A stretch of DNA of 64,000 nucleotides from Chlorokybus atmophyticus (Eukaryota > Plantae > Mesostigma and Chlorokybus algae). Every line of letters starts with the position of its first letter. The stretch's first letter is position 1. Location of the stretch: NCBI GenBank assembly GCA_009103225.1, contig RHPI01003389.1, forward strand, positions 310,001 to 374,000. The letters run 5' to 3'. A program made the position numbers and the translations under genes. The notes beneath the pieces are model-generated. The model did no database searches, was not told the origin of the DNA, and saw nothing but the letters and a program-made list of their open reading frames with translations. This document shows positions 11,870-50,767 of this stretch, in pieces.

Positions 11870-11944
<75 letters not shown>

Positions 11945-26425: not shown

Positions 26426-26670
26426 AGGCGGAGACAGCATCAAGTGTTGGTGTGCTGCCTGATTGTGTGCTTTCGTATCTGTCAGTGTGCCAGCCTGATG
26501 TCGCATGATGCAGTAAGGTAGTCGTGTTGTTAATCTAGTGCAGGCCTCAACGCCTCAATGTATGTGCAGTGGTAGGTACTGATTGCTATGTATCTGTCTA
26601 TTGAACGTGTGTGCTTGGCTGTGCCCATCTTGTGCCATTCAACCACATAAGCACCTAATCACATAAGATT

Positions 26671-27032
26671 TGCGCTCAGCACGCTCTCAGAAGGTGTGCA
26701 ACAATGCAAGATGCAAGCACACCGCCAGGCAATAATAGCAGTACAACACAAAGACAATAATTAGAATGGGGGCCAAGACAGAGCTTTACACTTACAACTA
26801 AGGCAAAGCACCTTAGGACCAGCCAGCACACTAGACCTTCATGCAGGCAAGGCAGTAGCAGTCAATGATGCAGAGGGGTACCATCTGCAGAGTACAGGGA
26901 CGGAGTAGAGGGAGAGGAGTGAGCCCCAAGGTCCGCGAAGGGTGCAGCCAGCATAGACAACTGCCACGCTGACGACGACAACTGCTTGGCCCCCGCTCAG
27001 AAGGTTGCGCCGCCAAGGGTGAAGTATGGTCC
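26671..27032 (-). repeat. 362-bp dispersed direct repeat, copy 1 (candidate 3' end / pseudo-LTR of the Penelope-like element)
   Basis: Colinear with 50406-50767 (roughly 80% identity by eye). Lies ~270 bp 3' of the PLE ORF stop and carries tandem TGTAA on the minus strand (26786-26796). Confidence 0.85.
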
Positions 27033-30074: not shown

Positions 30075-30416
30075 TGTAACGGTGTGCTACCTCCATAGAG
30101 GTTCCCCGCCCTTATTTAAGATTAGATAAGGGTCCCAACGGGATTATGTAGCCTGTTAAGCCTTGTTAAGGCCGTTAACCTAGTGTTAACGGCCTAATGC
30201 AGTGTGACTTAACTGTGACACTGATATCGGCGTGAGACATGAGTCTCACGCCGATATCAGCCGCATGGCGGCACTGCTAACGCAGTGGCCGCCATAGCCA
30301 GAGCATCTTTTGCTCTGGCAGCTGCCCCGGCAGCGGCGGCGGCGGTGGCGGTGGCTGGCTGGTAGTGGTGTTGGGGTAGGGGATTAAAGGGGGCGGTAGC
30401 ACCCCTCCTCCTTACA
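30075..30416 (+). repeat. 5' LTR of element A
   Basis: TG...CA termini; direct repeat of 39174-39515; followed by a PBS. Confidence 0.96.
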
Positions 30417-30418
30417 GT

Positions 30419-30430
30419 TGGTATCGGAGC
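30419..30430 (+). promoter_or_regulatory. Primer-binding site of element A (initiator tRNA-Met type)
   Basis: TGGTATCGGAGC 2 nt after the LTR end; one mismatch from the canonical TGGTATCAGAGC. Confidence 0.85.
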
Positions 30431-31212
30431 ACGGGCGGCAAGGGGCCTGTGGGAGGGGCGGCGGCAGGCGGCAGGCGGCGGCAGGCGGCAGCGACGTTAA
30501 ACTAGTGGTAGTTAAAGTGTTTTATGTTTTAACTATAGTTAAATGCTGCTGCTGGTGCCTAGCCTAGCCTAGCCTAGCCTAGCTTGCCATGCCATACATG
30601 CCATGCCTAGCCTAGCATGCCTGTCCTAGTCTAGTTTGTTATTGTGTGAAGGGAGCCGGCCATTCAGGCCTATCCCTGAAGCATTGCATTGCAGCACAAC
30701 ACATAGTAAACATACATTGATTGTATTATATTGTGTGTGTACCACCACGTGGATTCGTGGTGTAAGGGTTTTTCTATTAATTTGGAAATTCCCTTGGGGG
30801 GGGCCGTTGGGTGGCAACATCGACTGTCTCATTGCCGCCATTTTGTGCGGTGAGGCCGCCAGAATTTCTTGAGCGGCCGATATCAAACTCACCATTCACA
30901 ACTTGTCGATATCGGCCTGTAAAGTCGATTTGACGAGATTTTGGCACCCTGTGTGTCAATCACAGTTGTGAATTGTGCTGGGTTGTAAAGTGAAAACTTT
31001 GAGAAATCATAACTCGTGAACCGTCGTGTGGATTCGCGCACGGGTTGTTGCAGAGTGAGTGTCTAGTTGAGAGGTGTGTGGAGAGCTCTTTTGGGGCTGT
31101 ATACTCCATCGTAACGCCTCAAAACTTGACGAGACAAAATCATTAGATTTTGCCTGTTTTGCAGTGCACAATCTGAGTACTTGTGCACTTGCTAACGGCT
31201 GTCTTTGGGCAG

Positions 31213-32676
31213 ATGTCTGACCAAGGAGAGGGAGGTGAGAAGTACTTTACCGTCCCTGACTCGTCGTCATCATACGAACCATCAAGTGATGACAAAATGA
31301 GAGACTCGGACACGAGTGAGAGCTACAAGCTCACTGAGAGTGACAAGGAGGAAGCCGCGCAGGATAGCGAAGCTTCTCCCGATCAATCTACTCAGAGTGG
31401 GCCAGCTACAATGGACACACAGTCTGTCATTGGTGGGGCTATTGAGAAGTATGCGCGAGATCGCAAAGCCTTGATCGATGCTCACCCACAGCTTCGTCAG
31501 GAAGTGTGGGATGCATGGGCACAAAAGGTTCGTGATGGCTATGCAACAGATTTTGCCACTCTCCCTCGCGCAAGCAAGGAGATGGTGATCCGCATGATTG
31601 AGCACGAGTTGACGAACAACGTTCCGCCACTCGTGCGCGGTGATCCGAAGGTGGCTGCTCTTATGGCTGTTTACGATAGGCCGCTCCCATACGAAGGGAA
31701 GCGGATGGCGTTTGAGGCCTTGGCCAATTTGATGGTTAAAACGCAGCAGCGTTGCAAGGACGTGTTCTGGTATTTGGGACCTAACTTGGAAGACAAGTTG
31801 ACTGGCCGAGTGCAGTTGACGGCACGCCTTGATGCTATGCAGTCTGAGTTGGTGGCGCTGCGCCAACAGGTGGCGGGTGCTACTTCAGCAGCTGGTGCAT
31901 CAGCGAGGCTGCCGGTTACAGCACTGAACAAGCCTGAGAAGTTCAAGCCCAACGGCAGTGTCAGCATCCATGATTGGGTGGTCACTGTTGAGCACTATTT
32001 GACAGCACTAAAGCGCCCAATGAGTGAGCACGTTGCGGTTGCTGAGTTGCTGATGCCATCTGATGCTCTCGCCGAGTGGGCGAGACATACAGAGAACGGT
32101 GCTGCCAAGACAGTCGAAACACTGTTCCAGTTTCTGACGGAACGTTATGGTGGCATGGATCCGGCTACTCAAGCTCGCAACAAGCTCATGAAGTTGCGAC
32201 AGAATGGTCGGGCAGCTTCAGCCTATCTGCAGGAGTTTCAGGCGTTGGTGGGTCATGCTAACAGCGGCCTCATGCCCATGGACAAGGCCGAGCAGTTTGA
32301 GTTGTACAAGCGCGGCTTTTATGCGCGTGTGCGCGATATGCTGCAATACGACACTGTGATGGGGCTTCCTTGGGTTCCTGACAACTTGGCACAACTACAG
32401 AAGTTGAGCGTGTATCTGTTTGGTGATGACGCAACAGTGCAGGACAAGTCACAGGTGACAGAAACTGCCAAGTCGCAGCGGGTGGGAGGAAAGCGTTACT
32501 CTCAGCCAAGTGCGCATGTGGCGAAGAAAGCAAAGATGTTCGCGCCTCGTACTGGTGCTACGTCTACTGGTGGTGCAGCTACTGCGGCTCGCACCTGTTT
32601 CATCTGTCATCAACCTGGCCATATCGCAAAGAACTGCCCGACCAAGGGGAAGGGCAAGGCCAAGAAGGTTGAATAG
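31213..32676 (+). CDS. gag: Gag of element A (intact ORF, CCHC zinc knuckle)
   Basis: Open frame of ~487 aa with capsid-like 'KPEKFKP...ARNKLMKLRQNGRAASAYLQEF' and knuckle 'CFICHQPGHIAKNC'. Confidence 0.9.
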   Translation: MSDQGEGGEKYFTVPDSSSSYEPSSDDKMRDSDTSESYKLTESDKEEAAQDSEASPDQSTQSGPATMDTQSVIGGAIEKYARDRKALIDAHPQLRQEVWDAWAQKVRDGYATDFATLPRASKEMVIRMIEHELTNNVPPLVRGDPKVAALMAVYDRPLPYEGKRMAFEALANLMVKTQQRCKDVFWYLGPNLEDKLTGRVQLTARLDAMQSELVALRQQVAGATSAAGASARLPVTALNKPEKFKPNGSVSIHDWVVTVEHYLTALKRPMSEHVAVAELLMPSDALAEWARHTENGAAKTVETLFQFLTERYGGMDPATQARNKLMKLRQNGRAASAYLQEFQALVGHANSGLMPMDKAEQFELYKRGFYARVRDMLQYDTVMGLPWVPDNLAQLQKLSVYLFGDDATVQDKSQVTETAKSQRVGGKRYSQPSAHVAKKAKMFAPRTGATSTGGAATAARTCFICHQPGHIAKNCPTKGKGKAKKVE

Positions 32677-32875
32677 GATTACGCCGTGACTGATGTAGAT
32701 GTGGTTGATAGCCAGTTGCTTGTATTAGTAGCAAACTGGTTTGCTGAGTTGTCTCAGGTGCATGTAATGACACATGCATGGCAAGCACATAGCGAATTGC
32801 CGCTTTTTAAATATTGAAAAAGTGGAAGAGAATGCTTGTGTGTTGGTACATGTTGAGTTTAACATGCTTACTTAA

Positions 32876-34780
32876 GTGTTGCACACTTTAACTAAGTTGC
32901 AAAGTAAGCACAGAACCTTGAGTGTTGTGGTAATGGTGCCTAAGTATCATGGCCCATGGTTAAAACACACTCGAGGGGGGATTGTGTTGAAGCAATTTAG
33001 CAAGCGTGAAACAGGGACAGTGCGATTGTCAGCAATATTGACCAACTCTTGCGTTAGTCACGGACTCTTGGCTACGTTTCAAGGACGGGTAGTACCTCTA
33101 TTGTGGACATTTAAGGGTACAATGCATGGGATTACTAGTTCGTTCTTGGTTGACACTGGTGCGACACACAACTTTGTTGAGAAACAATGGGTTGTTCGCA
33201 ATAAAGTATCATGTAAACCCTCAGCATTTTCAGCTGCCGGTGCAGGGGGTGCGTTGCCAGTAAGAGGACAAATAAAAATGAAGGTAAAAATTGGTGATTA
33301 TCATGCCAACCTCACCTTCAGAATGGTGTCCATTAACATAACTGGTGTTGATGTGGTGCTAGCACAGGAATGGCAGGATAATGTCAAAATGACATTGGAT
33401 ACTGGTGCACGATTGTGCACAGTGAAAAAGGGTCGTAAGCGTGTAGCGCTGTCTGTGAGAGGGTCACATAGCTTGGAACAAGTGCAAGTTGATCCTGCGC
33501 TCCTGACTGCACTCCCAGTGAAGCGTGCTTTGCGTAAAAACACACCAGCTTTCTTGGTGCACTTAACGTCATCCGATGACTTTGTGCAAGGCAGCACGGA
33601 AGGTGTTGCAGACATTATTGAGAAGTATCAGGAGATATTCTCAGATGAGTTACCAGGCTTACCTCCTGATCGAGGTGTCGGGCACACAATACCTTGTATT
33701 CCTGATAGTGAGCCTTCATTTCGGCCTATATATAGGTTGAGCCCTCGTGAAAAGGGGGAAATGGAAACACAGATAAAGGAGTTACTGAAAAAGGGATTGA
33801 TTAAACCAAGTTCTTCACCCTTTGGCGCACCCATCTTGTTTGTTATGAAAGAGAATGGCAAGTTACGCATGTGTGTAGATTATCGTGCTCTAAACAAAAT
33901 CACGGTAAAGAATCGATACCCGTTGCCAAGGATTGATGATATGTTTGACAAGTTGTCGGGGAATGCGTACTTTAGTACATTGGACTTAACAAGTGGATAT
34001 CATCAAATCCGGATTCATCCTTTAGAAGTCTATAAGACTGCGTTTAGAACACGAACAGGTCATTATCAATACAAAGTGTTACCTTATGGATTGACTAATG
34101 CACCCGCCGTGTTTCAGAAGGAAATGAACAAAATATTTGACGATATGCTTGGCAAGCATGTCATGATTTACTTGGATGACATTATTGTCTTCAGTAAAAC
34201 AAAGGATGAGCATAGGCAACACTTGGAAGCGGTGTTTGCAAGGTTGCGCAAACACCGTCTGTTTGCAAATCTCACAAAGTGTTTTGCAAAATAGCGTTGC
34301 ATTTCCTTGGCCACATTGTGAGTGGTGCAGGCATCAAGCCTGACCCCCGCAAAGTGCAAATTGTGAAAGAATGGCCACAACCTAAAAATGTCCATCAACT
34401 AAGGTCGTTTAAAGGGTTGGCAAACTACTTTCGCAAGTCCATGATGGGGTACTCTACGGTTGTCATGCCTATGACCAAACTGTTGCGTAAACATTCCCCG
34501 TTCACGTGGACGACAGCACAAGAAGCTGCTATGCAACAAGTGAAGTTGGCTTTGACATCAGCACCGGTGTTAGCATTGCCAAATTGGGAAAAACACTTCA
34601 CAGTGGTCGGTGACGCATCAACACTTGGGTGTGGTGCGGTACTATTGCAAGATGGCAGACCTTGTGCTTATGAGAGTAAGAAGTTCATTCCTGCAGAGGT
34701 GAATTATACTACGTCTGAGCAAGATATATTGGGTATAGTTCATGCTCTTGAGACATGGAGATGTTACTTAGAGGGTGTTC
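32876..34780 (+). pseudogene. pol: Pol of element A, 5' part (protease, RT, RNase H up to the B insertion)
   Basis: Protease 'FLVDTGATHNF'; RT 'LRMCVDYRALN', 'YHQIRI', 'PYGLTNAPAVFQ', 'YLDDI'. Frameshift at ~34290. RNase H 'VVGDASTLGCGAVLLQ...HALETWRCYLEGV'. Confidence 0.93.
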
Positions 34781-34887
34781 TGTAACGGGAGCAATAATAC
34801 CCCTATTATTATTGCTCTTGTTACATTATTGCTCCCGTTACACCACACCAAGCCTTTTGTGGTGATCAGTGATGCTTCCACCATTGG

Positions 34888-36678
34888 GTGTGGGCAGTCC
34901 TTCTACAGGATGACAGACCATGTGCATATGAAAGCAGAAAGTTCATTCCTGCTGAACGTAATTACACAACCACTAAGCAGGAATTGCTCGGGGTGGTGCA
35001 CGCGCTGCGCACATGGCGTTGCTACTTGGAAGGGGTGGAGTTTTCAGTGATTACTGATCACAACCCGCTCACATTCTTTCATACGCAACAAAATCTGTCA
35101 AGGCGGCAAGCTAGGTGGAATGAATTCATTTCTCGTTTCACTTTTTCTTGGCAATACCGTCCAGGTCGCACCAATGTGGCGGATCCACTAAGTCGCAGCC
35201 CTGCTCTTTTGGCACTTACGCGCTCTCGAAGTACGCGTATTGTACAACAGCCTGAAGATCCTTTCTTAAAGGAAGTGTCCACAGGTTATAACTCAGGTGA
35301 TTGGTTTAGCAGTCAAACCAACTTGCAACAGCTTACTGCTGTTAGCAATCTGTGGTATAAAGGGGAGCAGTTGGCAATTCCCAACTCGGGCGACTTACGT
35401 AAGCAATGCTTACATTCAGTGCATGACCCGCCGTATGCTGGGCATTTGGGGAAACACAAAACACTCAAATCTGCGCAACAGTTATACTGGTGGCCGTCAA
35501 TGTCAGCTGACGTGGATCAATATGTTCGCACATGTGACGTGTGTCAACGCAATAAGCCACTACGACAAAAACAAGCGGGATTGCTTAAACCATTGGCAAT
35601 TCCAGAACAAAAGTGGGATAGTGTCAGTATGGATTTAATTACTGACCTACCTGAAACAGCAGCTAAATACACTGCTATTGTGGTTTTTGTCGACCGTTTG
35701 ACTAAAATGGTGCATTTTGCCCCGTGTTGCACAACTGCAAGTGCACGGGACTTGGCACACTTATTTGTGTCCACGGTTTTTCGCGTTCACGGTGTACCGC
35801 GTGAACTTGTCACAGATCGTGATCTTCGGTTTGTCTCCAAGTTTTGGCGAGAAGTGTGTGAATTGTTGGGGGCAAAACAAAGCATGTCAACTGCTTTCCA
35901 CCCGCAAACGGACGGTCAAACTGAGCGAGCAAATCAAATACCGGAAGAAATGCTTCGCCACTATGTGGCTCCTAATCATGCTGATTGGGACAGGTACTTG
36001 CCAATGGCAGAGTTCGCTGTGAACAACGCGTGGCAGGAAAGTGTGAAGGAAACCCCATTTTTCTTGAATTATGGGATTCGCCCGAACACACCAGCGTCAT
36101 TGCGTGTACCTCGCAATGCCCTGTCTGTACCAGCGGCAAAGGAATTTGCCACTAATATGCAAGAAAATTTGGCTCGAGCCAAGCTGTGTCTGTCAGAAGC
36201 ACAGGACAGGCAAAAAGCTTATGCTGATACACATCGAAAAATGGCCACTTTCGATGTTGACGATAAAGTTTTGCTTAATGCAAAAAACATAACCATCAAA
36301 GGTACGGGTGCTCGCAAGTTGCTGCCCCGATGGTTAGGTCCTTTCTCTATCACTGATAGAGTTGGTACGCACGCTTATCGACTGCAATTGCCCCCAAGTG
36401 TGCGTATACACAACGTGTTTCATGTAAACTTGTTGAAACCTTACCGCTCAGACGGTAGAACACAGCCTCCACCACCGCCAGTTGAGGTGGACAGCGAGCT
36501 CGAATATGAGGTGGAAGCTATATTGAACCATAAGCTAGATAGTCGAGGACGCGCAACTCGCTATTTGATGAAATGGAAAGGGTATGGCCCGGAACATAAC
36601 AGTTGGGAGCCCGACAGGCATCTTACGCACTGCCGCGAGTTGCTTCGAGCTTATTGGGATTCATGTCCTGTCCCATAA
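34888..36678 (+). CDS. pol: RNase H-integrase-chromodomain ORF of element B (partial pol)
   Basis: 596-aa open frame: RNase H; integrase HHCC 'HDPPYAGH...CDVC'; core 'MDLIT...VTDRD...TERANQ'; GPY/F 'WLGPF'; chromodomain 'YEVEAILNH...YLMKWKGYGPEHNSWEP'. Confidence 0.92.
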   Translation: MWAVLLQDDRPCAYESRKFIPAERNYTTTKQELLGVVHALRTWRCYLEGVEFSVITDHNPLTFFHTQQNLSRRQARWNEFISRFTFSWQYRPGRTNVADPLSRSPALLALTRSRSTRIVQQPEDPFLKEVSTGYNSGDWFSSQTNLQQLTAVSNLWYKGEQLAIPNSGDLRKQCLHSVHDPPYAGHLGKHKTLKSAQQLYWWPSMSADVDQYVRTCDVCQRNKPLRQKQAGLLKPLAIPEQKWDSVSMDLITDLPETAAKYTAIVVFVDRLTKMVHFAPCCTTASARDLAHLFVSTVFRVHGVPRELVTDRDLRFVSKFWREVCELLGAKQSMSTAFHPQTDGQTERANQIPEEMLRHYVAPNHADWDRYLPMAEFAVNNAWQESVKETPFFLNYGIRPNTPASLRVPRNALSVPAAKEFATNMQENLARAKLCLSEAQDRQKAYADTHRKMATFDVDDKVLLNAKNITIKGTGARKLLPRWLGPFSITDRVGTHAYRLQLPPSVRIHNVFHVNLLKPYRSDGRTQPPPPPVEVDSELEYEVEAILNHKLDSRGRATRYLMKWKGYGPEHNSWEPDRHLTHCRELLRAYWDSCPVP

Positions 36679-36825
36679 ACTGTGGGCTTGGTTTTATGAC
36701 AGACTGGCAGTGCAGTTTCATTACCACCCTGTCATTTCCTGCTATCTCACTGGTTACAATTACTCGAAATCAAGCCTGATCAACTTGAGTTCAACGAGGA
36801 CGTTGAAAACCTAAGTGGGGGGGAA

Positions 36826-37352
36826 TGTAACGGGAGCAATAATAATAGGGGTATTATTGCTACCTAAATAACACATTTTGTATGAATAAGTGTTTAAATA
36901 TGCTTAATTATACCTCTTTCCTACGGTTCCGCGCTTATTTAAGGCTATGATGCTTTATCATAGCTTAAATAAGTCCCAATGGGTGTAGAACCGCTTATTC
37001 AAGCCTATTTAGTGTCACATTTGATATAATGTGATCACCATCTCGTTAGGTACCTTACGTATAGGTATCTTTGGATAGGTACCTTATCGATAAGTACCTT
37101 ATCTGAGCTGTGATTGGCTCACGCTAGATTTCCTAACTACCCTATCTGTAGGGTCGATGTCTAGTTGTGAGTTAATTATCGAGAGGTATATAGTTGATAT
37201 ACTCTTGATATAAAAGGTCACATCAGTCTGATGTGGGGACTTTCAGTTCTCTGCTCAGTGGTGGCCACGCCGTTGAAAGGCTTGTCATAGGCGGTGTGGG
37301 TGTTGGGGTAGAGGATTGAAGGGGCATCACCGGCGACGGTGGTGCTGTTATA
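36826..37352 (+). repeat. 3' LTR of element B (preceded by PPT at 36813-36825)
   Basis: Follows AAGTGGGGGGGAA; homologous along its whole length to 43900-44427; TATAAAAG box at ~37210. Confidence 0.95.
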
Positions 37353-39010
37353 TGTTCAGTTCACTGTTGTGACTGATCACAACCCGTTGGTGTATTTCTC
37401 AACACAGCAAAACTTGTCGAGACGACAAGCGCGCTGGAATGAGTTTTTGTCCAGGTTTACCTTTGATTGGGTATATCGGCCGGGCAGAACCAATGTGGCG
37501 GACCCTTTAAGTCGTTGCCCGTCATTATTGGCGGTGATGCCTGCGCAATTACTCGCAACACGCAGCACATTGTCTCCTGATGATAAGTTTGTGCAAGCTG
37601 TTGTACAGGGGTACACTTCGGACCCATGGTTTTCGGTTGCAGAAAACTTACAAAAGCTTGACAAACGGGACAATCTGTATTACATGAACAGCAGTTTGGC
37701 AATACCAAACCATGCTGATTTACGCATGAAATGCATAACGGATGTTCACGATCCACCGTATGCTGGGCACTTTGGGGGTCGCAAGACTACCAAGGCAGCG
37801 CAACAGTTGTACTGGTGGCCATCGTTGCCTGTTGACGTGAAGCGCTATGTTGACACGTGTGATAAATGTCAGCGTGACAAACCTTTACGTCAGAAACCCG
37901 TTGAGTTGCTGCAACCTTTGCCTGTTCCTGATGGCAAGTGGGAAAGTGTGAGTATGGATTTAATCACTGAGCTCCCTGAGACAATGTTAGGACACACTGC
38001 GGTTGCAGTTTTTGTGGACCGTTTGACAAAAATGGTTCACATTGTCCCTTGTTGCACGGAAATAGGCTCCCGTAAATGAGCGATGGTTTTTGTCGCCTCT
38101 GTATTTAAGTTGCATGGCTTGCCTCGCGACTTTGTGTCTGTTCGCAATCCGCGATTTGTGGCTCAATTCTGGAAGTCGCTATGCAGCTTCTTACATATTC
38201 AGCAGAATATGAGCACAGCTTATCATCCACAAACGGATGGTCAAACAGAGCGCGTCGTATCAAGTGATTGAAGAAACTTTTCGGCATTATGTGAGTCCGA
38301 ACCAGTCTGATTGGGATATCTATCTTTCAATGGCTGAGTTTGCGATTAACAATGCATGGCAAGAGAGTGTGCAGGAAGCTCCATTTTTCTTGAATTATGG
38401 TATGCATCCACTAAGTCCTGCGAGTATTATAAGTTGCCCGCTACCGACATAACTCGCGTACCTGCAGCACGCGAGATGGCTTCGGCCATGCAGGATAGGT
38501 TAGCGTTGGCAAAGGCCTGTCTGCGCGCAGCGCAAGACAAACAAAAAGCCCATGCTGATGCACATCGCAGAGAGGCCAACTACGATGTGCGCTGTTCAGT
38601 GCTTTTGCGCACTAAAACATATCCATCAAGGGAGTGGGTACCCGTAAGTTTTTCCCTCGCTGGATAGGCCTTTCAAAGTGACTGATCGGATCGGCACTCA
38701 CGCGTATCGGTTGGACTTGCCAAAATCCATACGCATTCATAATGTGTTTCATGTGAGTGTACTAAAACCGTATCGTTCCGACGGTCGGGTTCAACCTCCT
38801 CCACCCCCGGTCGCAGTGGATGGCGACGATACTTTCGTATATGAGGTGGAAGCAATCCTAAGTCACCGTAAGCCTCGACGCGGACGCGCGCCGTTTTACT
38901 TGGTGAAATGGAAAGGGTATGGTGTTACAAGAACACAATACATGGGAGCCCGAAAGGAATCTTACCAACTGCCAAGAGATTCTTCGGGGGTACTGGAGTA
39001 CTGTGTAAGA
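37353..39010 (+). pseudogene. pol: Pol of element A, 3' part (end of RNase H, integrase, chromodomain) with frameshifts and stops
   Basis: 'QFTVVTDHNPL', 'HDPPYAGH...CDKC', 'MDLITELP', 'AYHPQTDGQTER', 'YRLDLP...HNVFHVS', 'YEVEAILSH...YLVKWKGYG' are spread over several frames. Confidence 0.92.
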
Positions 39011-39173
39011 TGTCTGCCAGCACCCTTTTACCGTCCGCACGCGGACGGTAAAAGGGTGCTGGCAGACATCTTTATCGCTTCGGCCCTTATTCTCTCGCTG
39101 CTTTTGTTTCGCAACTCGTGGTGGGGCTTTGCTAACCCTTCAACGAGGACATTGAAACCTAAGTGGGGGGGAA

Positions 39174-39515
39174 TGTAACGGTGTGCTACCTCCATAGAGG
39201 TTCCCCGCCCTTATTTAGGATTAAATAAGGGTCCCAACGGGCTTATGTAGCTTATTAAGCCTTATTAAGGCCGTTAACCTAGTGTTAACGGCCTAATGCA
39301 GTGTGACTTAACTGTGACACTGATATCGGCGTGAGACATGAGTCTCACGCCGATATCAGCCGCATGGCGGCACTGCTAACGCAGTGGCCGCCATAGCCAG
39401 AGCATCTTTTGCTCTGGCAGCTGCCCCGGCAACGGCGGCGGCGGTGGCGTTGGCTGGCTGGTGGTGGTGTTGGGGTAGGGGATTAAAGGGGGCGGTAGCA
39501 CCCCTCCTCCTTACA
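39174..39515 (+). repeat. 3' LTR of element A (PPT at 39161-39173)
   Basis: Follows AAGTGGGGGGGAA; direct repeat of 30075-30416; followed by TSD GCTGG. Confidence 0.96.
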
Positions 39516-39969
39516 GCTGGGGCTGCAACCAATTGTCTCAGCTCTGCATCTCAGACTGGCCGCCTTTATAAACTCACACGCTACTACCAACATATGTAAT
39601 AACTATACTAATTCTACTTGACCCACGCAAACAATGCCAACATACGTGCACGCACCCATGCACAACCAGGCTATCGTCCCTGCCATGGTCGAGGGTCACG
39701 CCGTCTCGGGCACACTGCAGAGCGCTCATGCCGTGGGCATGCTGGTGCTGCGCGCAGCATTAGAGCAACACAAAGACAACCGCCCAGACATAGGCATAGG
39801 CTCGGGGATGAACCTATGTGAGGATCTGATTAGTAGTAGAGGTGGTGACGCTCTCCTTCTTACTGTCCCTACTTTGCTGTAGTACACACAGTTAATAAGC
39901 CCCCCCTAAGGTTCTGCGGTAGCCTCCTACTCTAGGACTCAGCTTTTACTGACTGTGTGGGGAACCGTT

Positions 39970-40110
39970 GATGCGGCAGTCATCGCACCAATACTCCCAC
40001 AACGGCACCTTATCCAATGGAGGGTCAAGGCAGTAACAGTGCATGCCTTGGTTGCAGCCTTCGCATAGCAGTATTACGGGATCGTTGTCGGCGCTGCCAC
40101 AATTCTTGTA
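39970..40110 (-). pseudogene. PHD finger at the integrase C-terminus of element C
   Basis: '(Y)KNCGSADNDPVILLCEGCNQGMHCYCLDPPLDKVPLWEYWCDDC' has C4HC3 spacing; the first Cys reads TAC (Tyr). Confidence 0.9.
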
Positions 40111-41300
40111 GCGGGTGCTTCGCAGCGATCGCGGGTGCTGGATCTTACCAAAGCCAGCAATGTGGGGTAGATGACAGGGCGCGCAGTTCACCATGTTGTC
40201 CTTCATGCGCTCGCCTTGTTGTCTCAGAAGGTCCAATACCCCTGTGGGATACACCTTCAATACCTTATAGACAGCGCGCCCGACGGAGGTGTCGAGGGTG
40301 TCGTGTGTGGCCGCCATACGGTAGACAAAGTCTCTTGGCTGGAAGCGGCGTTGTCGCTTTCTGTAAAAACCGCTGCGCACACGCTCGTAGCGAAGCGTGT
40401 TGCAATGCTGAGCAATGCACAGGTTGTTAAAGGCCATGGGGACAGTGTGCTCGAACAGCGCGTGAGCATCGGGACAGTGTGCTCGAACAGCGCATTGCGC
40501 ACTGTCAGATCATACAGCATTTCGTCGAGGTTGTCGAGATTGTCCGCCACTCTGTTGAGGTCCTCCTGCTGTGCGTGGAAAGGGAGCAATGGCTGCCTTT
40601 CAAACAGCAAACAGTATAGGCTGTACTCCCGCAGTGCTGCCTACTTGGACAGCCGGTATCCCAAACCGGCTACCCATGGGAGGTGGTCATCCCATGTGCT
40701 CTTCGAAGTCGAAGTAGTACTTGCGCAAAGCCTTCTTGATGGTCCGCACGATACCCTCAGCGTCACCATCGGCTTGTGGATGGTCGCGTCAAGTTTGGCG
40801 ATGGTCGATGAAGCATCGGTCGATGAGCTTGTCGAAGGCTCCTCTGAACTCCGTACCTTAGTCGGTGATGACTTCAGCACAGATGCCGAAGCGTCCGAGT
40901 ACATGGGAGAGGAAAGCCTGGGCTACTCCCTCGCTGCTCTTGTCGGGCAGGGGGGCACTAGCTCCACCCACTTGGAGAAGTGCTCAATCATGACGAGGAT
41001 GTAGCGGTTGCCTCGTGATGAGGGCAATAACCCCCAAAGATGTCCAGTGCCCAGCGATAGAACAGTCCCGAGATGGGGAGGGGATGCAAGGTGGCGTTGC
41101 GTGTGTTGAGGCTCACGCGGACCATGTCACACTGCTGATAGTCGCTGACCAACTTGCGCACCTGTTTGTGCACCCCATACAACCAGTATTGAGTCCTAAC
41201 CAAACTGGCCGTGCGCTTAACAACGAAGTGTCCGAGCTCGGTGTGAAGGGCAGCGATGATGCCTTTTTGCGCAGCTGGTGTTAGGACCTCCTTGTCCTCA
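40110..41300 (-). pseudogene. Integrase of element C
   Basis: 'HTELGHFVVKRT...QCDMV'; 'LHPLPISGLFYRWALD'; 'LVMIEHFSKWVEL'; 'ITD*GTEF'; 'RDHPQADGDAEGIVRTIK'; 'WDDHLPWV'. A 23-bp tandem duplication lies at ~40439-40494. Confidence 0.88.
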
Positions 41301-41699
41301 TTCTGTATCCGTCAATATGGTTTGTCGTCGGCCTAGCGATAGAGCTGAGTGCATAAACTGACGCGGTCTTTCTCGCACGTGCTCATACCTGCTGAAAATT
41401 GTCCAGTCCGGAGTGCGAGGGATGGCTTGTCAGGCCAAATGTCCTGTCGTGTGTCGGTGGGTGCCAACTCCTCATCGTCCACCTCAGGGTCGACGGCGAG
41501 CGCTTCTCTGATAAGAGGTCGGTGACGGTGACGATGGGCCCGAAAGAAGGCACGTCCTTGTCTGCTGATGCCTCCGTGGCCTGGGTGTTGCGTCCTGCAC
41601 GTAGCGCAGCGACAGCGAACATGGCCGCTAGGTGTAGCGACATAGAGGTGCGGCTGCAGGACCCAACTCGTGTCGGGCTCCTGTCGCATCGCTGGTGCT

Positions 41700-43000
41700 G
41701 AGGTGGGGGTTGCGTTGCGACTAAGGCCGTCTGCGTTTTGATTGGACAGGCCTGCCCAATGCTCCACCTCACAGTTGTACTCCTGCAGCAGTGGTGCCCA
41801 CCGTGCCAGCTTGCCTGTCAGGTGCTGGTTGGTCATCAATAACTTCAGTGGTTGGTGGTCAGTGATCAGTTGAAACTGCCGTTTAAATAGAAAGAGGCAA
41901 ATGAAGAAGATGGCCCATACCGCTGCGAGACACTCCCCCTCGTAGCTGCTGTAATTGGCCTCAGCGCTTTTGTTGCTGCGGCTAGCATACAATACTACGC
42001 GCTCCTTCTTGTTGTCATCGTGCTGCACGAGCACTGCTCCCATGCCGAGCTTGCTGTAATCCGTGTGCAGGATAAATGACCTGCCGTAGTCAGGTCGCTA
42101 AAAAATGGAAACTGTGGTAAGTCGGAGCTTCGACTCCTTGAAGGCCTCTTATTGTGCCTCTTTCCACGAGAACTTCGTGTCCTTCCTCGGCAATTTGTTG
42201 AGTGGCCGCGCAATCTTCGTGAAGTCCTTGACGAACCATTTGCGCCCACCGTACGTACACATCGTGGGGCACAATCATGTGCCCTAAGTAAGGTACTTTG
42301 TGGGTAAAGAAGGTGCACTTGTCGGGGTGCACCGTCATCCCTACTTCATACAATCTCTGCAGCACCTCCTCGATGAGCCTGAGATGCTCCTCACTGCAAC
42401 TGAAAATGAGGATGTCATCGATGTAGCAGCGTGCAAAGTCAAATTCCTTGAGGGCTTTGTCCATGACGCGCTGGAACTTGGCAGGAGCATTCTTAAGTCC
42501 GAACAGCATGACTTTCCACTGGTACAGCTGCCGGTCGCCCCAGAAGGAGGTCTTGTGCTTGTCCTCCTCCTTGATGGCGTTGTACCCTTGGCGCAGGATG
42601 TCCATGTCCAGGATATTGAAGACTGTACAGTCTCCTACATCATCAAAGATACCTTGCGCAGTTGGCATTGGATACCTGTCGTGCTTGTTGTTGAGGGGGT
42701 GGTAGTCACCGCACATACGCCGGTCCGTCCAATTGCCTGTTGAATACTTCTTCAGGGGTATGACAATTGCGGCCGCAAAGTCCAATGTGGACTCCTCGAT
42801 CAGGCCTGCATCTAGCAGAGCCTTGCACCTCTGCTCCACCAAGTTTTCTTCCAACTTGGGGTGTCTGTACTATCGTCGGCACACCGGTTCGGTGTCCACC
42901 AACTTGATGTCCATCTGGTAAATTGAACAGCTGCCCAACGCCTTCACGCTGAAGCTGAGCTGACTCGTCCACTTGTTGAAGAGAGCCTCAAGTTGTTCTA
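41700..43000 (-). pseudogene. Reverse transcriptase and RNase H of element C
   Basis: 'GNWTDRRMCGDYHPLN', 'DRYPMP', 'FGLKNAPAKFQRVMD', 'YIDD' (42425-42414). RNase H 'LHTDYSKLGMGAVL...NYSSYEGECLAAVWA...TDHQPL'. Confidence 0.92.
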
Positions 43001-43223
43001 ATGGCTGGCTACTAGCGAGCGGTCCGATGGCATGCGAACAGGAGGTAGCGTTGGCGACCACCGGAATGTCCTCCACAATGACTGCTGCCTGCTCTTCCAT
43101 GTGGGCGATCTCAAGGGCGGTGTGTGACGCTTTAGTCTCTCGAACGCGATCAGCCCACCCCCACGCCAGGTGTTTGAGCATTTGGAAGGACACATGGCGG
43201 TGCTGGAGAGCAAAGCACATCTC

Positions 43224-44715
43224 TCACAACCACACCATGCTATTCTGATGCATTGCGCGCCCCAACAACTGACATTGCTGACTGTCGGTCAGCATAAAAC
43301 CTGCGATACTGCTTGAAGAGAATCCCACGGCGCGTGCGCGCTTGCGAGTGCTGGGTTCCTCCAGCCAGCCTGTGTTGGAATTTAACACAGTGCCGTCACC
43401 TCCGTTGCGGAAGGCGTATGAACCTGGGCAAGACACCAGAGAGGGGAGCGCACGGCGCGGTTGACCAGGTTGGATGCAGTGGTAGATGTGCTGGCAATCG
43501 TGTCGCGTAACCGTTTGTGCTGTGCGCCTAGGGTCCAGGATGATGTCGACGGTGAGATTGCGTGGACAACCGCTGTGCACATATTCAGCAGCGAGCGATC
43601 CTCCACTGTGGCCAGGTTGGTCCATTTAACGTGGCCGCGATGAGCATCGGGATCCATGACGCGCTGCGTTAATATTGAGAGGATGCCCCAGCAAGGAGCA
43701 CACCTGTAAAAGGCTGTTGGCCACGTGATGACGCTTATCGTCCTCGGAGTGCACGTTCTCGATGCTGTACCCCAGGGGCCTGAAGATCTAGTTGGTCTGC
43801 AGGAATTTGATGACACACATCAGCTCCCGGAACAGTTGTGAGCGAGGATCAGAAAGTCCTTGGCCTCTGCCTGCTCTGGAGTATCCTTGACACTCCCATT
43901 GTAACGGGAGCAATAATAATAGGGGTATTATTGCTACCTAAATAACACATTTTGTATGAATAAGTTTTTAAATATGCTTATTTATACCTCTTTTCTACGG
44001 TTCCTCGCTTATTAAAGGCTATGATGCTTTATCATAGCTTAAATAAATCCCATTGGGTGTAGATCCGCTTATTCAAGCCTATTTAGTGTCACTTTTGATA
44101 TAATGTGATCACTATCTCGTTAGGTACCTTACGATAGGTATCTTTGAATAGATACCTTATCGATAGGTACCTTATCTAAGCTGTGATTGGCTCACGCTTG
44201 AATTCCTAACTACCCTATCTGTAGGGTCGATGTCTAGTTGTGAGTTAATTATCAAGAGGTATATAGTTGATATACTCTTGATATAAAAGGTCACATCAAT
44301 CTGGTGTGGGGACTTTTCAGTTCTCTGCTCAGTGGCGGCCACGCCGTTGAAAGGCTTGTCATAGGCGGTGTGGGTGTTGGGGTAGAGGATTGAAGGGTTG
44401 TTGGCGGCGACGCCGGCATCTGTTACACCCATCCTGTCATTAACAAGTCAATGTTGCCCACAGCCAGGAGGTGATTGGCAGTGCTTAAGCGGATGTCCTG
44501 TGGTAGTGCCTTCAGACTGCCTTCAGTGCTGATGGTGGCAGCTGCTGCGGGTAGCACTCATATAGGCGGCGCAAATGGTGGCTAAGGGCAATCCGTGCGT
44601 GTGGATCAGGGTCGCAGTAAAGGTACTTGGTGACCATTGCGCCGGTGTTGAGGACAGCGGCGAGGCCACTACCTATACCTCCAAACAGTTCCAACATAGT
44701 GATGCTTTGTTGTCG
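43224..44715 (-). pseudogene. C5 cytosine DNA methyltransferase domain inside element C's polyprotein, split by a solo LTR
   Basis: Motif I 'ITMLELFGGIGSG' (~44700-44665); motif II 'YLYCDPD'; 'PQDI'; motif IV 'DLLMTGW|ECQGYSRAG' (Cys codon 43892-43890); motif VI 'IENV' (43760-43752); motif VIII region 'AHRGHVKWTNL'; motif IX 'EEPSTRKRARAVGF'; motif X 'LLGRAMH'. Confidence 0.88.
43900..44427 (+). mobile_element. Solo LTR of family B
   Basis: TGTAAC...TGTTACA, homologous to 36826-37352; TSD CCCAT at 43895-43899 and 44428-44432; no PBS or PPT adjacent. Confidence 0.96.
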
Positions 44716-45079
44716 GCGAAACACGTCGAACTCCACTACTCTAGTGGCTACTTGATATTGCTCCTGGACTGCAGCTTGGTCCTTATGGAGAGGACACCGT
44801 GCAGTGAGCCGTAGCCTGGTTAGTAATAGATGTGCGACCACTTGTGCGCACCAACGGCGTTCAAATGGTTTCTGTTGGGCCACTTCTTCAGTGGCATCCT
44901 CCTGGGACTCATCGTATGGGATAGGAGAGTCTTGGTTAGGGTTGTGGGTGACTACCGATACTGACCTGTCAGTGGTTGTCGAAGCCGACCAGTAGGTTGC
45001 TATTGCAGCTGACCTTTGGTGAGAGCGAGTGCGAGCCACCAACTCGAGAGGCCAATATTCTTGAACCTTTCCATCCTTG

Positions 45080-45430
45080 TCAACCCAATGGGGACGAAAC
45101 CATGCCTTCTCCGTGTAGCAGTGCAGCCCCATGTCAACAGAAAAGTTGAAGTTGCATCCCAACAGCAGGTCCAAGGATCCTGCGTCGGTGACCACACACT
45201 TTTGTATGACCTTGGTGCTGCGGGAAGAGTCCAACCCTGTCAAGCGAATGCGAGAGGGCCTGCTTGGTGATGCCAATCACCTTATCACGGCTGCAGGTTG
45301 ATGTGTCAAGCACGTTTGGGCAGGTCATCAGCTCAGCGCTGGTGATTCCGAGGTCGCGTGCGAGGTAACGTCCGATGATGACAGGCTGGGCTCCAGAGTC
45401 CAGCACCACGCGCTTGGGTGCTCGACTGTT
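45080..45430 (-). pseudogene. Aspartic protease of element C
   Basis: 'RVVLDSGAQPVIIG' active-site motif and, after a frameshift, the 'LDLLLG' flap/C-terminal motif. Confidence 0.85.
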
Positions 45431-47932
45431 GATGGTAACATGCTTGCCTTGCCTTTGTTAGTGATTATGGCTGCACTGGCGTTGATGCGCAGACGCTTGA
45501 ATCGTCAATAGCGTGTGCGTGGGGTGACTGCTGCTACAGTCTCATACGGTGGTGTCGAGCGCAGTGCGTAAAGAGCCCCTCGATCGGCTGGGTCTTGAGA
45601 ACCTTTTTGTCCGCGGCCTGGCCCGAACTATCTGTCTTGGCTGTTGGTACACTCGCTGCGGTCTGGGTGCTGGCGGTGCTGCCTGTGGCTGCCCTGACTG
45701 TGGAGTAGGGGGATTGCGCCTCGGTGTGGTCGGGGTTATACCTGGCGGTGAGGCCATTGGCTGTGGGGGGAACCCTGGAGGACTGGGTGGTTGTAAACCC
45801 GCCTCGCGTGCAGCCTGTTCTTCTACATAGGTCCAGTGTACAGCATGAGCCGCCTCCCTGATCAATGTACCTTCCCATGTGGCTGTTGATTGTTGACCAC
45901 GTCACTGCAGCGATGGTTCTAAGGCATGGGCTGAAGATACACTGCGCGCAAGAGCCGCGCTCGTATGTCGCGGGCTAAGGTGGAATCCCTTAGGATCCCT
46001 GCCATGTAGGCATCCCATCTGCCATTAACCACCCCCAATTCTAGCACCGTTGTTACTCGTGCATGCACAGTGCGGTAAATCTTTGGCTGTTAAACGTGCT
46101 GCTCATAATCAGCTGCGATGCGTCCGCGTGGTCGCGCTGCTTTCACTCTTGGCAACCTCAGTATGGCCTCTTGAGCTCCTTCCAAGGTGTCAGTGGCTGC
46201 CGAGGCCACCTCATCATATATATAGGCTATATAGGCTATATAAGCTTGCCGTAGCGAGCGAAGCAAGGCGTCCAACCATAAGAATCTGGTGCCAATCGCG
46301 AACAAAGGGACTGCGGGGTGACTAGTGACTAGATAAGTCACTAGTCTCACTCGCGCTGCATTGCAACCTTGTCGCATCCCCATCATCTGTCTCAGACCGA
46401 TGCCTTCTTGTCGATGTAGTATGGTTGCTTGTCGCAACAGGGCAATGCGAACTTGCTGTTTTCCAACTAGGCCTGCTCCATCCCGCCGTGTACACCCTTG
46501 TGGTGTAAGGTAGCCTCTCCCTGGGTCTCGTTGACCGTCAGGCAAATTTTCCATTAAAGCGGGTAGCAGCGGGGCGATCACCCCCCTGGTTTGTTGGGCC
46601 AGCGCCCTCGCTTGGTCACTGTCGGTCTCAATGGCGAGAGGTGTAGTGCTAGACGAAAGGATTGTTGGTTGAGGAACGGAAGCGCGAGCAGCGGCAAGGG
46701 CTTGCGCTCGTGCATTGATGGCTGCAGTTTGGTCCTGTCGCCAGGTGAACGCTTGTTCCAGAGCGGTGTAGCGCTCGTGAAGCCGAATAATACTGAGGGG
46801 CCTCAGTGCTTTGTCGTTACCCAAAGGCATGTCAGCTGCATCACTGGTGTGCTGCACATTGGGTTGCCGGTCTCGATACGTGTCCAGCGGACTTGGCTCG
46901 AAAAGCTCGTAACAAACTCGTACGGGCTGGCGTGGCGCGGTCTACATGTTGTCATGCAGAGAACAGTTGCCGGGCCAACTCCAGCACAACAGGTTCCAAC
47001 CACAAAGATGTGGTCTCGTATGGGAGGCGCCGTGTCGGCGAGATTTTTATCCTCCAGTTGCCGCTGGGTTTGCTCTGGCAGGGTGTGATGTTCAGGCAAC
47101 GCGATCACTGCGTTCAACGCGCGTGGTGCGCTGTCCTCCTTTCTCATAAGCATTGGTGGTGAGATCTGCTCCACGCACGATGGTGTCCCATGAGCGCTCA
47201 GCTTGCTGACCTTGCGGGACAGCCTGAGTGGCGTCGAGGGCGGAATGTAGCTGCCCGCGTCGCTGCAGTGGCAGCGGACTCGACGATGACACTGGCAGTG
47301 GTTGCAATAGTGCCGGTCAGTGGCGCGAGAATGGTCTCAACGCTCGTTGACACAGGTGGTCCTGCAACTGGAGCGGGACCGGTGCGATTTTCTGCTGCAA
47401 AATAGGTGACAACAGCGGCTGTCGCCATTGCGCTCACCAGTATTAGCGTCACGGTGCCCACTGATGTATTAACTCCTTGTGCAACTGGAGTAGTTGCACA
47501 AGGACGTTGACAGAGTCGACGTCGTAGCCGGTGTGGCTATTGCTGCTGATGCAGCACCACTGGTGGCTTTTGAGGAAGTAACTGCTGACGATGTTGCGGC
47601 TTCCCCTTGTGCTCGTTGGGATGGTTAAACACGTGACGGAGTGCTCGAGTCTCGCGTGCGCTTTGGAGCCATCAATGCCCATCGGGCAAAGTAGCGGGCG
47701 CGGTAGTCCTGCTCCGAACAGGACAGGAGTGATCTTCCTCCAAGCGTGCCATACGCGCCACGAGGGCAGCAATATGGTCATCAGCTGGTGGGTTGGCTGG
47801 AGCCTTGGCGGCAACAGCAGCAGCGCGCGGACGTCCTTCCAGTCCCTTGCGCTAAGGAGGACAATCCTTCCCCCTGTAGCCTTGCGAGCGTTGGCGTAGT
47901 TGTTGTTGTTGATATGGCCTCCGGTGTGGTTG

Positions 47933-49494
47933 CTATTGTAGCCACCAGTTGTTGCCGTTGTGGCCTCCAATGTTGTTGCTGTTGTAGCCACCAGAGTTGT
48001 TGCCGTTGTAGCTGTTGATAGGTCTCAACTCAAGGAACTTGAGCCTGCAAACTGACTTCAAGTGACCCGTCTTGTGACAATAATTGCAGACCAGGGTTGA
48101 GTACTCTTCGGTGCACTCGTTGTGGTAGTGACCATGCCGTCCACAGCAATGACACAGCATAGGGGCAGGCAAAGTAGTATGAGCTGACCGTTTCCCTGTG
48201 TCGCGTGCTGATAGAGCGTCTCGGCCACGTTCGCAGCGAGGAGGCTCAGTAGTTGTGCTGGCTACATGCCGTGAGGCGCTACGGTTGGTGTCCACAATGG
48301 CCTTCTCGTACACCAAGCGCTTGTGGATAGCTTGTGCAGTCGCGAAAGCTTCCTTGAGTGTGTAGCTAAGGGGCTTGCTGTAGTTCAGGGTCGGGCGCGT
48401 CGACTCGCTTTGGGTGGCATCTAACTCATTAACATACACCACTGCAGCAGCCTCGTCACTAACGATCGTGTAGTCAATGTCCTTCAGCAGCCCTTCCTGT
48501 CTGGAGTACAGGCGCAGAGGGTCCTCGTTAAACTTGCGTCGAAACCGTCTCAGCTCCTCTACTTTGCTGGTGGTCTGAAGTGGGAAGGTACGAAGTGCAG
48601 CGTATAGATTCTTGAGTGGAGAGTTAAAGTTGGCAGCACCTACAGTGATGGCTGGTGCGCGCAGTGCAACTGTCCTAAGGGTAAAAGCACTGCCTCCCGC
48701 ACGAGAGCTATGTGTTGTCAAGGTAGAGGCGTGCCCACCTCAACGGCTGCAGCTCATTGTTCTGCAAAGATAGCAGTAGAACGGTCCAGGATCCGAGCCC
48801 GTTGTGCGACCACTTTGATCTCAACTTCTGCAGGGGTCAGGTTGACGATCACCAACTCAGGCTCCTCCTCTGCCCTCCCGATGGCTGCAGCTATGCACAC
48901 GCTAATGACTGCAGCTGGAGTGGCAGGTGGAGCGACGGCTGCTTCATTGTGCAATAATGCAGATGCTATGGTGCTGACGAGCTCGCCATAGCCAACAACT
49001 TGATGCAAATCAGCATCAGACTTCCAGACATCGTGTGCTTCACGGTTCAGATTTTGAGCAGCAATGTGGGAAGAAATTTCATCGAACCACTTTTTGTTCT
49101 TCAGAGCTTGCTGTCGCATCTTGGAATGGAACTTGATGATGATTTCGTCCAGCGAGGTGGTGCCAGCACGTCCGAAGAAGCGCAGGGTTGTGGTTGAGCT
49201 GGAAGACTCCATCTCGTAGTCATCGCTGTCGGACGATAGTGGGGAAGCTTGATGGCGAAGAGTGGACCGGACCAGAGTGAAGCCAGAGACAGAACGCGAG
49301 CCTCTGCTGATGCGATCGCTGCTCCCGTCGCTGGTCCGCGCGTAGGTGAGATTGGAGGTTGGGCTCCAGCTGCTGAGGTCGTTCTCGTCTATTGGAGAGA
49401 ACGGGGTGGGCTTGCTCATACAGCTAGTCCACAGGTGAAAGTGTATGTAGGGTAGAGTGTTGTGCTCTACCGTCTGTCTTGATGCTGCTACCAC
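47933..49494 (-). pseudogene. gag: Gag of element C with two CCHC zinc knuckles
   Basis: 'CHCCGRHGHYHNEC' and 'CNYCHKTGHLKSVC'; upstream capsid-like 'VEELRRFRRKFNEDPLRLYSR'; split over two ORFs. Confidence 0.8.
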
Positions 49495-50405
49495 TCACCA
49501 CACTAGTGCTTGTGTGCGCACTATGTGATGATAGTGACAATGCATGCACAGGGATGTAAGCTACAAATTGCGCTATCTGATGCAAAATGCGACGCACTCA
49601 CTTAAGCAAAGAGGGTGACACTGTGAGTAAACAAGCCACTACGATCGATAGTGCTGTATACACAGTTCTTTGCATGAGTGGATGATGTATTACACTGTTA
49701 AACGAGGTGAATGAACAAGCAACTCAGAGATGCTATGTTCTGACTGACGCAGCAAACACACCATCGCCAAGCTCAGCAATGACAATGCATAGCGCACAAG
49801 AGCATATACTGTGTCTCACGTGGTAAGGCAGTCCTTGGCAACCGGGACGGTGTGTTTCCAGTTCAAGTCGCTTCACAAGCTCTTAAAGTCAGAGTTTCTA
49901 CTCTTAGTACTCACTCACATTGTCACCAGCGAGTCTAGTGACATGACATCCTACTTATACATGTCAAATCATGACTGTGCAGTGCCACGCGAGCACTAGG
50001 CCAACGGTCACATCAAGGCCGTATGCTATTACGGAAATCCCCTAAAACTCGATTTAGCACCTGAGCTGATAATAGATTCCCAACTGATCAGCTACGCGCA
50101 GTTTCTACAGAGAGGTCTATAGAGTAGCCCTAGCTACATGCTACATGTAGTACGAAGTAGCTAGCAGTAGGCTGGGGCGCGCGCGGTCTTCATGCTGGTA
50201 GCCCGGGCGTGGGGCTGGATGTAAGCATGCTCGGGGAGAACTGGCATGCGAGGATATTTGGCATGACAAGGCAAACTTAAACATGCGGTGGCGCTAGGTG
50301 ACTTGCCCCAGGCTAGCCCTGGCAAGGGGATCATTGAACCAGCGCAAGGCCGGCAGCAACGGCTCAACCAGAATCCAGGGCTTATCACATAAAGCACAGA
50401 AGAGC

Positions 50406-50767
50406 TGCGCTCAGCACGCTCTCAGAAGGTGTGCAACAATGCAAGATGCAAGCACACCGCCAGGCACTAGTAGCAGTACAACACAAGCAGAATACTAGAA
50501 TGAGGACCAAGACAGAGCTTTACACTTACAATTGAAGCAAATTACCTTAGGACTAGCTAACACACTAGACCCTCTTGCAGGCAAGGCAGCGGCAGTCAAC
50601 GACGCAGAGGTATCACCTGCAGAGTGCAGTATAATGACGGAGCAGAGGGAGAGGTTAGCCCTAAGGTCTGCAAAGGGTGCAGCAAGCATAGACGACTGCA
50701 ACGCTGACGACGACAACTGCTTGGCCCCCGCTCAGGAGGTTGCGCCGCCAAGGGTGAACTATGGTCC
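50406..50767 (-). repeat. 362-bp dispersed direct repeat, copy 2 (candidate upstream pseudo-LTR of the PLE)
   Basis: Colinear with 26671-27032 from TGCGCTCAGCACGCTCTCAG to TATGGTCC. Confidence 0.85.

Follow-up and report, generated by a model that had tools for sequence, protein, structure and literature searches.

A Ty3/gypsy retrotransposon copy with a DNMT3-like cytosine methyltransferase between protease and reverse transcriptase, and the family to which it most likely belongs

Retrotransposons that carry an enzyme which normally silences them have posed a riddle since 2018, and the sole Gypsy example gave no activity. In a stretch of 64,000 nucleotides (the window, to which coordinates refer unless another locus is named), a sequence-only reading had placed a complete C5 cytosine DNA methyltransferase (DNMT) between the protease (PR) and the reverse transcriptase (RT) of a Ty3/gypsy element, referred to here as element C. 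The locus raises the questions of whether the methyltransferase is an integral part of this element, of which type it is, from where it was acquired and what it may do for intact members of the same family. The element and its parts, from its 5′ to its 3′ end, are the following:

39672..50268, minus strand: whole element C, layout A-coding-B; first letters TGTCATGCC, last letters GGGACGATA
49630..50268, minus strand: repeat A (5′ terminal repeat), about 640 bp, inner boundary approximate and placed from contig joints
47933..48739, minus strand: Gag-like frame with two Cys/His knuckles (Pfam zf-C2H2_10, E 0.004)
45260..45457, minus strand: aspartic protease with LDSGAQ (Pfam Asp_protease_2, E 1.4e-4), frameshifted on its 3′ side
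44432..44712, minus strand: N-terminal part of the DNMT, with motif I (ELFGGIG), motif II (CDPD) and the strand toward motif IV; frameshift near 44515
43900..44427, plus strand: solo LTR of the neighbouring chromovirus family, 528 bp, TGTAAC...GTTACA, within motif IV of the DNMT
43227..43899, minus strand: C-terminal part of the DNMT, with motif IV (WECQG), motif VI (ENV), a damaged motif VIII, the target-recognition region and motifs IX and X (LLGRAM)
42252..42896, minus strand: reverse transcriptase with YIDD (RVT_1, E 1.6e-22)
41705..42235, minus strand: RT connection and RNase H (Pfam RT_RNaseH, E 1.1e-31)
40159..41311, minus strand: DDE integrase, H2C2 finger and core (Integrase_H2C2, E 7e-9; tblastn with relatives), frameshifted
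39946..40101, minus strand: PHD finger, the integrase C-terminus up to the stop codon (Pfam PHD, E 2.8e-7)
39900..39907, minus strand: polypurine tract AGGGGGGG, directly before repeat B, a position common to the relatives
39672..39899, minus strand: repeat B (3′ terminal repeat), about 225 bp

The limits of element C are given by an exact 4-bp target duplication, GCCT (50269-50272 and 39668-39671), and by the summed depth of the X1 contigs, which falls from 175 to about 2 past 50323; contigs of X5 and X6 provide almost no coverage of the region. The order PR-RT-RNase H-integrase, the Ty3-type RT, the DDE integrase, the polypurine tract, the TG...CA ends and the target duplication assign it to Ty3/gypsy; element C itself starts with TGTCATG and ends in TA where its relatives have CA. 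Two full LTRs are absent, split repeats being found in their place, and element C has neither the tyrosine recombinase nor the DIRS-type RT that are hallmarks of DIRS/PAT elements. No TGG-type primer-binding site was found right after repeat A in element C or at loci L011, L029 and L041. The joint between repeats B and A (50268 to 39670) is present in two X1 contigs and ends 2 nt beyond the end of B, which is the spacer length in the relatives, and the joint between A and B (39893 to 49630) has the support of a single X1 contig.

The coding parts are tied to those of relatives along the element: the Gag-like frame matches the Gag of locus L081 (BLASTP E 2e-6) and was also found by tblastn with protein P0226, the protease matches that of relatives with a PR-DNMT arrangement, and the C-terminal PHD finger is present on most full-length relatives too. 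The RT is in frame with DNMT motifs IV-VI and IX-X, premature stops alone lying between them. A region of approximately 2.4 kb (45500-47900), flanked by the Gag knuckles and the protease, contains broken frames (46090-46941 and 45542-45901) with family-contig coverage and without a Pfam or Atlas match (best Atlas value 0.84, for ORF 46093-46941). Two 87%-identical copies of an unclassified 376-bp repeat (26657-27032 and 50392-50767) were considered as the two LTRs of element C; this was dismissed, as they lie outside the GCCT duplication and the high-depth region.

Within this framework, the C5-methyltransferase motifs named by the sequence-only reading were indeed found in the order given, on the minus strand and between LDSGAQ and YIDD, which the Pfam matches listed above identify as protease and RT. 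Motifs I, IV, VI, VIII, IX and X, numbered according to the general C5-methyltransferase scheme, follow each other across a full-length domain, and the DNMT region contains no introns. It had also been proposed that a solo LTR interrupts the domain, and this proved correct: the LTR at 43900-44427 splits motif IV, is bordered on both sides by the 5-bp target duplication CCCAT (43895-43899 and 44428-44432), and is 95.6% identical across 499 bp to the LTR at 36826-37323 of a nested chromovirus, while two X1 contigs span the DNMT in an LTR-free version of the site. The neighbourhood contains a chromovirus A at 30075-39515 (LTRs 97% identical, GCTGG duplication) and, nested in it, a chromovirus B (about 34775-37340), whose LTR family is the source of the solo LTR.

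The excision of 43900-44432 that had been suggested removes the LTR plus one target copy. None of the three stop-to-stop DNMT fragments matches Pfam DNA_methylase singly; the post-LTR frame, with X at two stops, does match it (E 2.1e-4), but at 21.3 bits, slightly below the gathering score of 22, and intact relatives score likewise low with this model (21-46 bits). When the breaks are bridged with X, the domain matches a 327-position profile made from 45 relatives at 310 bits (E 7e-97), the match extending from position 3 to 324. The description of the methyltransferase as complete is accurate as to its length and fails as to its function. The frame is broken by three frameshifts (near 44515, 43646 and 43585, the last two in the C-terminal part), by an internal TAG, also in the C-terminal part, and by a TGA immediately after motif X, and the second motif VIII Arg of the relatives is replaced by His. 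The catalytic Cys and ENV are retained; of 48 highly conserved columns element C preserves 38, the median relative preserving 45, and identity to the nearest relative is approximately 40%. On the evidence of the LTR, the frameshifts, the stops and the loss of the motif VIII Arg, the DNMT of this copy is dead and cannot be active.

A region that is broken repeatedly, and of which no fragment alone reaches the Pfam threshold, could have been inserted separately, or could be a host pseudogene trapped in this one copy, an explanation to which we assign a negligible probability and which is refuted by the intact relatives. The closest RT match among 94, P0002 (60% identity), carries PF00145 ahead of the RT in a single ORF, and the same arrangement in one ORF was found in P0015, P0023 and the Closterium protein P0022. 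Among metagenome loci, 56 of 80 extend more than 1600 nt upstream of the RT, and a DNMT is present there in 45 of these 56, starting in most cases about 1440 nt ahead of the RT; these loci are not independent, since few hosts account for many of them and some represent an identical insertion. The remaining 11 comprise nine distant Ty3 elements without a PHD finger, L057, where the DNMT follows RNase H, and L005, a family member without a DNMT. The equal placement at 45 of 56 loci, the single-ORF DNMT-RT proteins, the continuous cover of the whole length of element C by many diverged contigs and the lack of introns argue against a separate insertion. The relatives thus bear out the earlier proposal that this Ty3/gypsy element carries a C5 DNMT as an integral part, located between PR and RT.

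A search with the N-terminal ORF of element C (44512-45276) retrieved 235 protein clusters at E<=1e-3, and most of the matches, among the matches listed, fall within the N-terminal part of the DNMT. A DNMT is present in 162 of the 305 proteins examined, counts which are inflated by cluster members. It is located after PR and/or before RT or RNase H, as in element C (layout 1), in 33 of the 162, and after RNase H and/or before the integrase (layout 2) in 37, with a further 91 being DNMT fragments without a neighbour domain and one occurring together with Dam. The latter, P0255 (1417 aa), combines this DNMT (AFPCQ) and a Dam adenine methyltransferase domain in one protein. At loci with an RT match, a DNMT was found at none of seven on viral contigs and at one of seven on genome contigs (L081). 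No relative was retrieved by a word-based search of longer proteins with the N-terminal ORF or the post-LTR frame, a search in which the RT query succeeded, nor by locus scans with the post-LTR frame on viral contigs or with P0002 on metagenomes.

Concerning the hosts of these relatives, L081 and L082 represent an intact family element; the contigs are assigned to the genome of an uncultured Synechococcales cyanobacterium, but are probably eukaryotic DNA binned there by mistake. Many metagenome relatives are embedded in flanks of mostly 24-40% GC; those of L010, L011, L022, L033, L047 and L065 are low-GC and CpG-poor and contain P450, B-box, PGG, ankyrin and Ycf1 fragments, and this flank content suggests that many of the relatives reside in a moss-like land-plant genome. 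A single in-frame stop separates Gag-PR-DNMT from RT in the branch of L081 (3489-3497 of that locus), L001, L007, L008 and L033. In this branch the stop is followed by CAA, the sequence in L081 being TAG CAA TCA, which presumably resembles a readthrough context; readthrough, if true, would render the DNMT more abundant than RT and integrase.

The type of the enzyme was determined on intact relatives, the domain of element C being tied in through the family profile. A profile of 16 relatives searched against the PDB matched DNMT3A best (E 7.5e-23), followed by DNMT3B, DRM (7.7e-11) and M.HhaI (1.7e-9). The model of P0203, an intact layout-2 protein (pLDDT 84.5), has DNMT3A as its best fold match (E 1.8e-16), and all 34 of its listed fold matches are DNMT3 entries. 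By these sequence and model comparisons, the family of element C is DNMT3-like in both sequence and fold. The earlier observation that motif IV of element C reads E-C with the catalytic Cys kept was verified (WECQG). Among 45 relatives, motif IV is E-C in 24, P-C in 18 and another form in three, and the Cys is present in all 45; since E-C occurs in 24 of these 45 relatives, it is a family trait and not decay. In alignment A1 (16 relatives) all rows share the motif VI Glu, and almost all share the motif VIII Arg. Between subfamilies, the DNMT shows dN of 0.49-0.67 with dS of at least 2.4 or saturated, and is under purifying selection; the close pair L008/L001, both decayed copies, has a dN of 0.046 versus a dS of 0.065, indicating no strong selection.

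In order to place element C among these relatives, RT-RNase H and DNMT trees were inferred by quick searches with SH-aLRT support only. In the RT-RNase H tree (55 rows), all DNMT-bearing elements fall within a single clade of 42 rows (SH-aLRT 100). Its two branches correspond to the layouts, with 20 rows for layout 2 (100) and 22 for layout 1 (95); element C is in the second, alongside Closterium proteins and the Coleochaete protein P0003, which has a sister transcript (P0155) coding for PR and the N-terminus of the DNMT. The DNMT tree is concordant and places element C in a Closterium-containing clade of 15 rows (95). All named layout-1 relatives are streptophytes. Because the two trees agree, a single capture of the DNMT followed by a move within Pol, in either direction, appears more likely than a separate capture in the case of element C. 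The layout-2 sister clade (P0026, P0153, P0154, P0189, P0208, P0221 and others) carries its DNMT3-like domain between RNase H and integrase and retains the catalytic Cys and a C-terminal PHD finger as in layout 1; L057, a layout-2 locus (11534-12163) with the DNMT after RNase H, has a palindrome at the junction of repeats B and A in common with layout 1.

The host was characterized from the genes of the window, namely AsnRS, CP12 with a transit peptide, a POT transporter, LeuRS, PEPC, a WDR60-like gene and CBS-PB1, which indicate a ciliated green alga with the standard code; that this alga is a chlorophyte is given about even odds. The PEPC gene (21008-26426), which we take to be of bacterial type, ends in RNTG and has an apparent GC-AG intron starting near 22492. 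The possibility had been raised that the DNMT represents an independent acquisition, in which a Gypsy lineage of chlorophytes, without kinship to the Klebsormidium elements, captured a C5-methyltransferase. Weak hints in this direction are the first Cys pair of the CP12 in the window, which is 8 apart and so one residue closer than in plant CP12 chains, a spacing as that of C23-C31 in Chlamydomonas CP12 (PMC8151241), and the nearest Atlas clusters of the WDR60-like gene, which are mostly Chlorophyta in a collection where streptophyte algae are likely scarce; the identity of approximately 40% between the DNMT of element C and its nearest relative is compatible with the same view. Nevertheless, the RT and the DNMT both fall in Closterium-containing clades, the RT also with Coleochaete, the terminal sequences of element C are common to low-GC relatives, and both the DNMT3 type and the split repeats are as described for Klebsormidium. 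Independent capture is consequently regarded as very improbable.

Considering that the DNMT3 type, the RT clade with Coleochaete and Closterium and the split repeats are held in common, element C most likely adds a further member to the Gypsy-DNMT3 elements described from Klebsormidium, and the earlier assignment to the DNMT-carrying Ty3/gypsy elements of de Mendoza et al. 2018 is upheld. No Klebsormidium sequence occurs among the 30 proteins looked up, and the membership therefore rests on common features and not on phylogenetic placement alongside the type element. According to PMC5890265, KnitGypsy-Dnmt3 of Klebsormidium nitens resembles the family of element C in its intronless, non-permuted DNMT3-like domain in a Ty3/gypsy Pol, in DIRS-like split repeats combined with Gypsy domains and in purifying selection on the DNMT; element C differs in its host, in being dead and in its shorter A-coding-B form. 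The text of PMC5890265 does not appear to state where the DNMT lies or to mention a PHD finger, a palindrome at the junction, a target duplication or more than one layout, all of which a figure or supplement may show. SymbioDIRS-Dnmt3 of Symbiodinium (PMC5890265) likewise has a DNMT3-type domain in Pol, the layout A-coding-B-A-B and two domain orders, but combines them with a DIRS RT and a tyrosine recombinase, whereas the family of element C has a Ty3 RT, a DDE integrase and 4-bp duplications. The EpiLTRs of Cymbomonas and Euglena (bioRxiv 10.64898/2026.05.21.726589) also unite LTRs, a cytosine DNMT and a chromatin reader; their DNMT is sister to DNMT4, is accompanied by Dam and a chromodomain and, in Cymbomonas, occupies the 3′ end of pol, whereas element C has a DNMT3-type domain before the RT and a PHD finger, and lacks Dam (its ORFs gave no Pfam match to Dam or a chromodomain). 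As one EpiLTR host, Cymbomonas, is a chlorophyte and its DNMT belongs to another clade, only a DNMT3-type Gypsy element in a chlorophyte would be new.

The ends of the family members are informative as to how they may integrate. The relatives have the layout A-coding-polypurine tract-B-A-B; A-coding-B-A-B is the layout of DIRS-type elements, which KnitGypsy-Dnmt3 is said to share (PMC5890265), and split repeats are tied to DIRS only, as far as the text of PMC8557442 goes. Repeat A begins with TGTCATG and repeat B ends with CACGACA, so that at the B|A junction these ends meet head to head as CACGACA-NN-TGTCATG, an arrangement found at 17 of 40 loci examined; the spacer is 2 nt in all 17, with 1-4 nt permitted in the search, and a junction with a 2-nt spacer is present in L081 and L057 too. 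At L081 the two ends overlap by 127 nt, as may happen in assembly through repeats alone. Among eight insertions with both ends, five have the form A-coding-B-A-B and three A-coding-B, and the 4-bp target duplication matches at four of four positions in three, at three in four and at two in one.

The palindromic B|A junction and the 4-bp duplications point to a predicted integration from a circle. The functional repeat unit would be B+A, beginning at the polypurine tract, and joining of the cDNA ends would create the A|B junction; the circularised cDNA would be cut at the B|A palindrome, and the integrase would insert it. A circle with two B+A units, cut once at B|A, would yield A-coding-B-A-B. 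The A-coding-B form, to which element C belongs, may derive from a one-unit circle, from linear cDNA cut at both junctions or from later B-B recombination, and is probably a dead end, being devoid of the junction and of terminal redundancy. Transposases of the IS3/IS30 DDE type integrate through a circle junction, and foamy virus cleaves an LTR-LTR junction. These systems likewise have inverted ends head to head, a short spacer and a DDE cut, whereas the junction of the present family is inside the integrated element and is copied through RNA, its mechanism being deduced from sequence only. A published split-repeat, junction and circle model for this family was not found, though a figure or supplement of PMC5890265 may show part of it; nor was a report of the layout-2 sister clade, the C-terminal PHD finger or the B|A palindrome with 4-bp duplications found, in a search that barely covered subscription journals and Repbase reports.

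These elements are combined in the explanation which we regard as probable: a Gag-PR-DNMT3-RT-RNase H-integrase-PHD family whose intact members likely methylate their own cDNA at CG and are predicted to circularise it, cut it at B|A and insert it. The protease would free the DNMT inside the particle, and the DNMT would methylate either the cDNA or the newly inserted element, giving the copy host-like marks. The PHD finger, occupying the place at the integrase where chromoviruses carry a chromodomain, may read the state of the histone H3 tail and thereby influence the choice of insertion site. By analogy, the DNMT most likely serves to methylate CG sites of the element's own cDNA de novo: two related Symbiodinium retro-DNMT3s performed de novo CG methylation in yeast (PMC5890265).

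An alternative, which we consider unlikely though less so than independent capture, is that the DNMT is integral and selected, and is not catalytic on cDNA, acting as a DNA-binding or protective module or, dependent on a host cofactor, on the integrated copy or on defence loci. The Klebsormidium domain of KnitGypsy-Dnmt3 was inactive in yeast, which its authors view as inconclusive, and human DNMT3B was likewise negative in that assay (PMC5890265), a result that weakens the argument from inactivity. The CpG observed/expected ratio is 0.78 in element C, 0.73 in chromovirus A and 0.66 in the PEPC gene region; CpG depletion in element C being no greater than in its neighbours, it bears no footprint of self-methylation, and this lack of excess CpG loss, the E-C motif of 24 of the 45 relatives and the ability of the domain to work from two polyprotein positions would all suit a non-catalytic role. 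Catalysis, on the other hand, is favoured by the motif IV Cys of all 45 relatives, by the invariant motif VI Glu and nearly invariant motif VIII Arg of alignment A1 (n=16) and by the fold match to DNMT3A; methylation of the element's own cDNA is thus retained as the preferred role.

The copy in the window is a pseudogene, and its main addition is a new host; the further value of the analysis lies in the breadth of the family, its two layouts and the circle-integration model. Tentatively, and at somewhat less than even probability, Gypsy-DNMT3 may be an old and large clade of the green lineage, ranging from algae (possibly chlorophytes, should the present host be one) to moss-like genomes and differing in its life cycle from other LTR retrotransposons, with an internal palindromic attachment site, a DNMT3-methylated circle, PHD-based targeting, an early split into two layouts and, in one branch, stop-codon readthrough. 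Many more natural versions of the enzyme are now at hand, including the stop-free L081, P0002 and P0015, E-C and P-C forms, both layouts and a Coleochaete transcript pair, and these offer better substrates for activity assays. From the palindrome, the 4-bp duplications and the split repeats comes a specific model, open to testing, in which a Ty3 integrase inserts the element from a circle.
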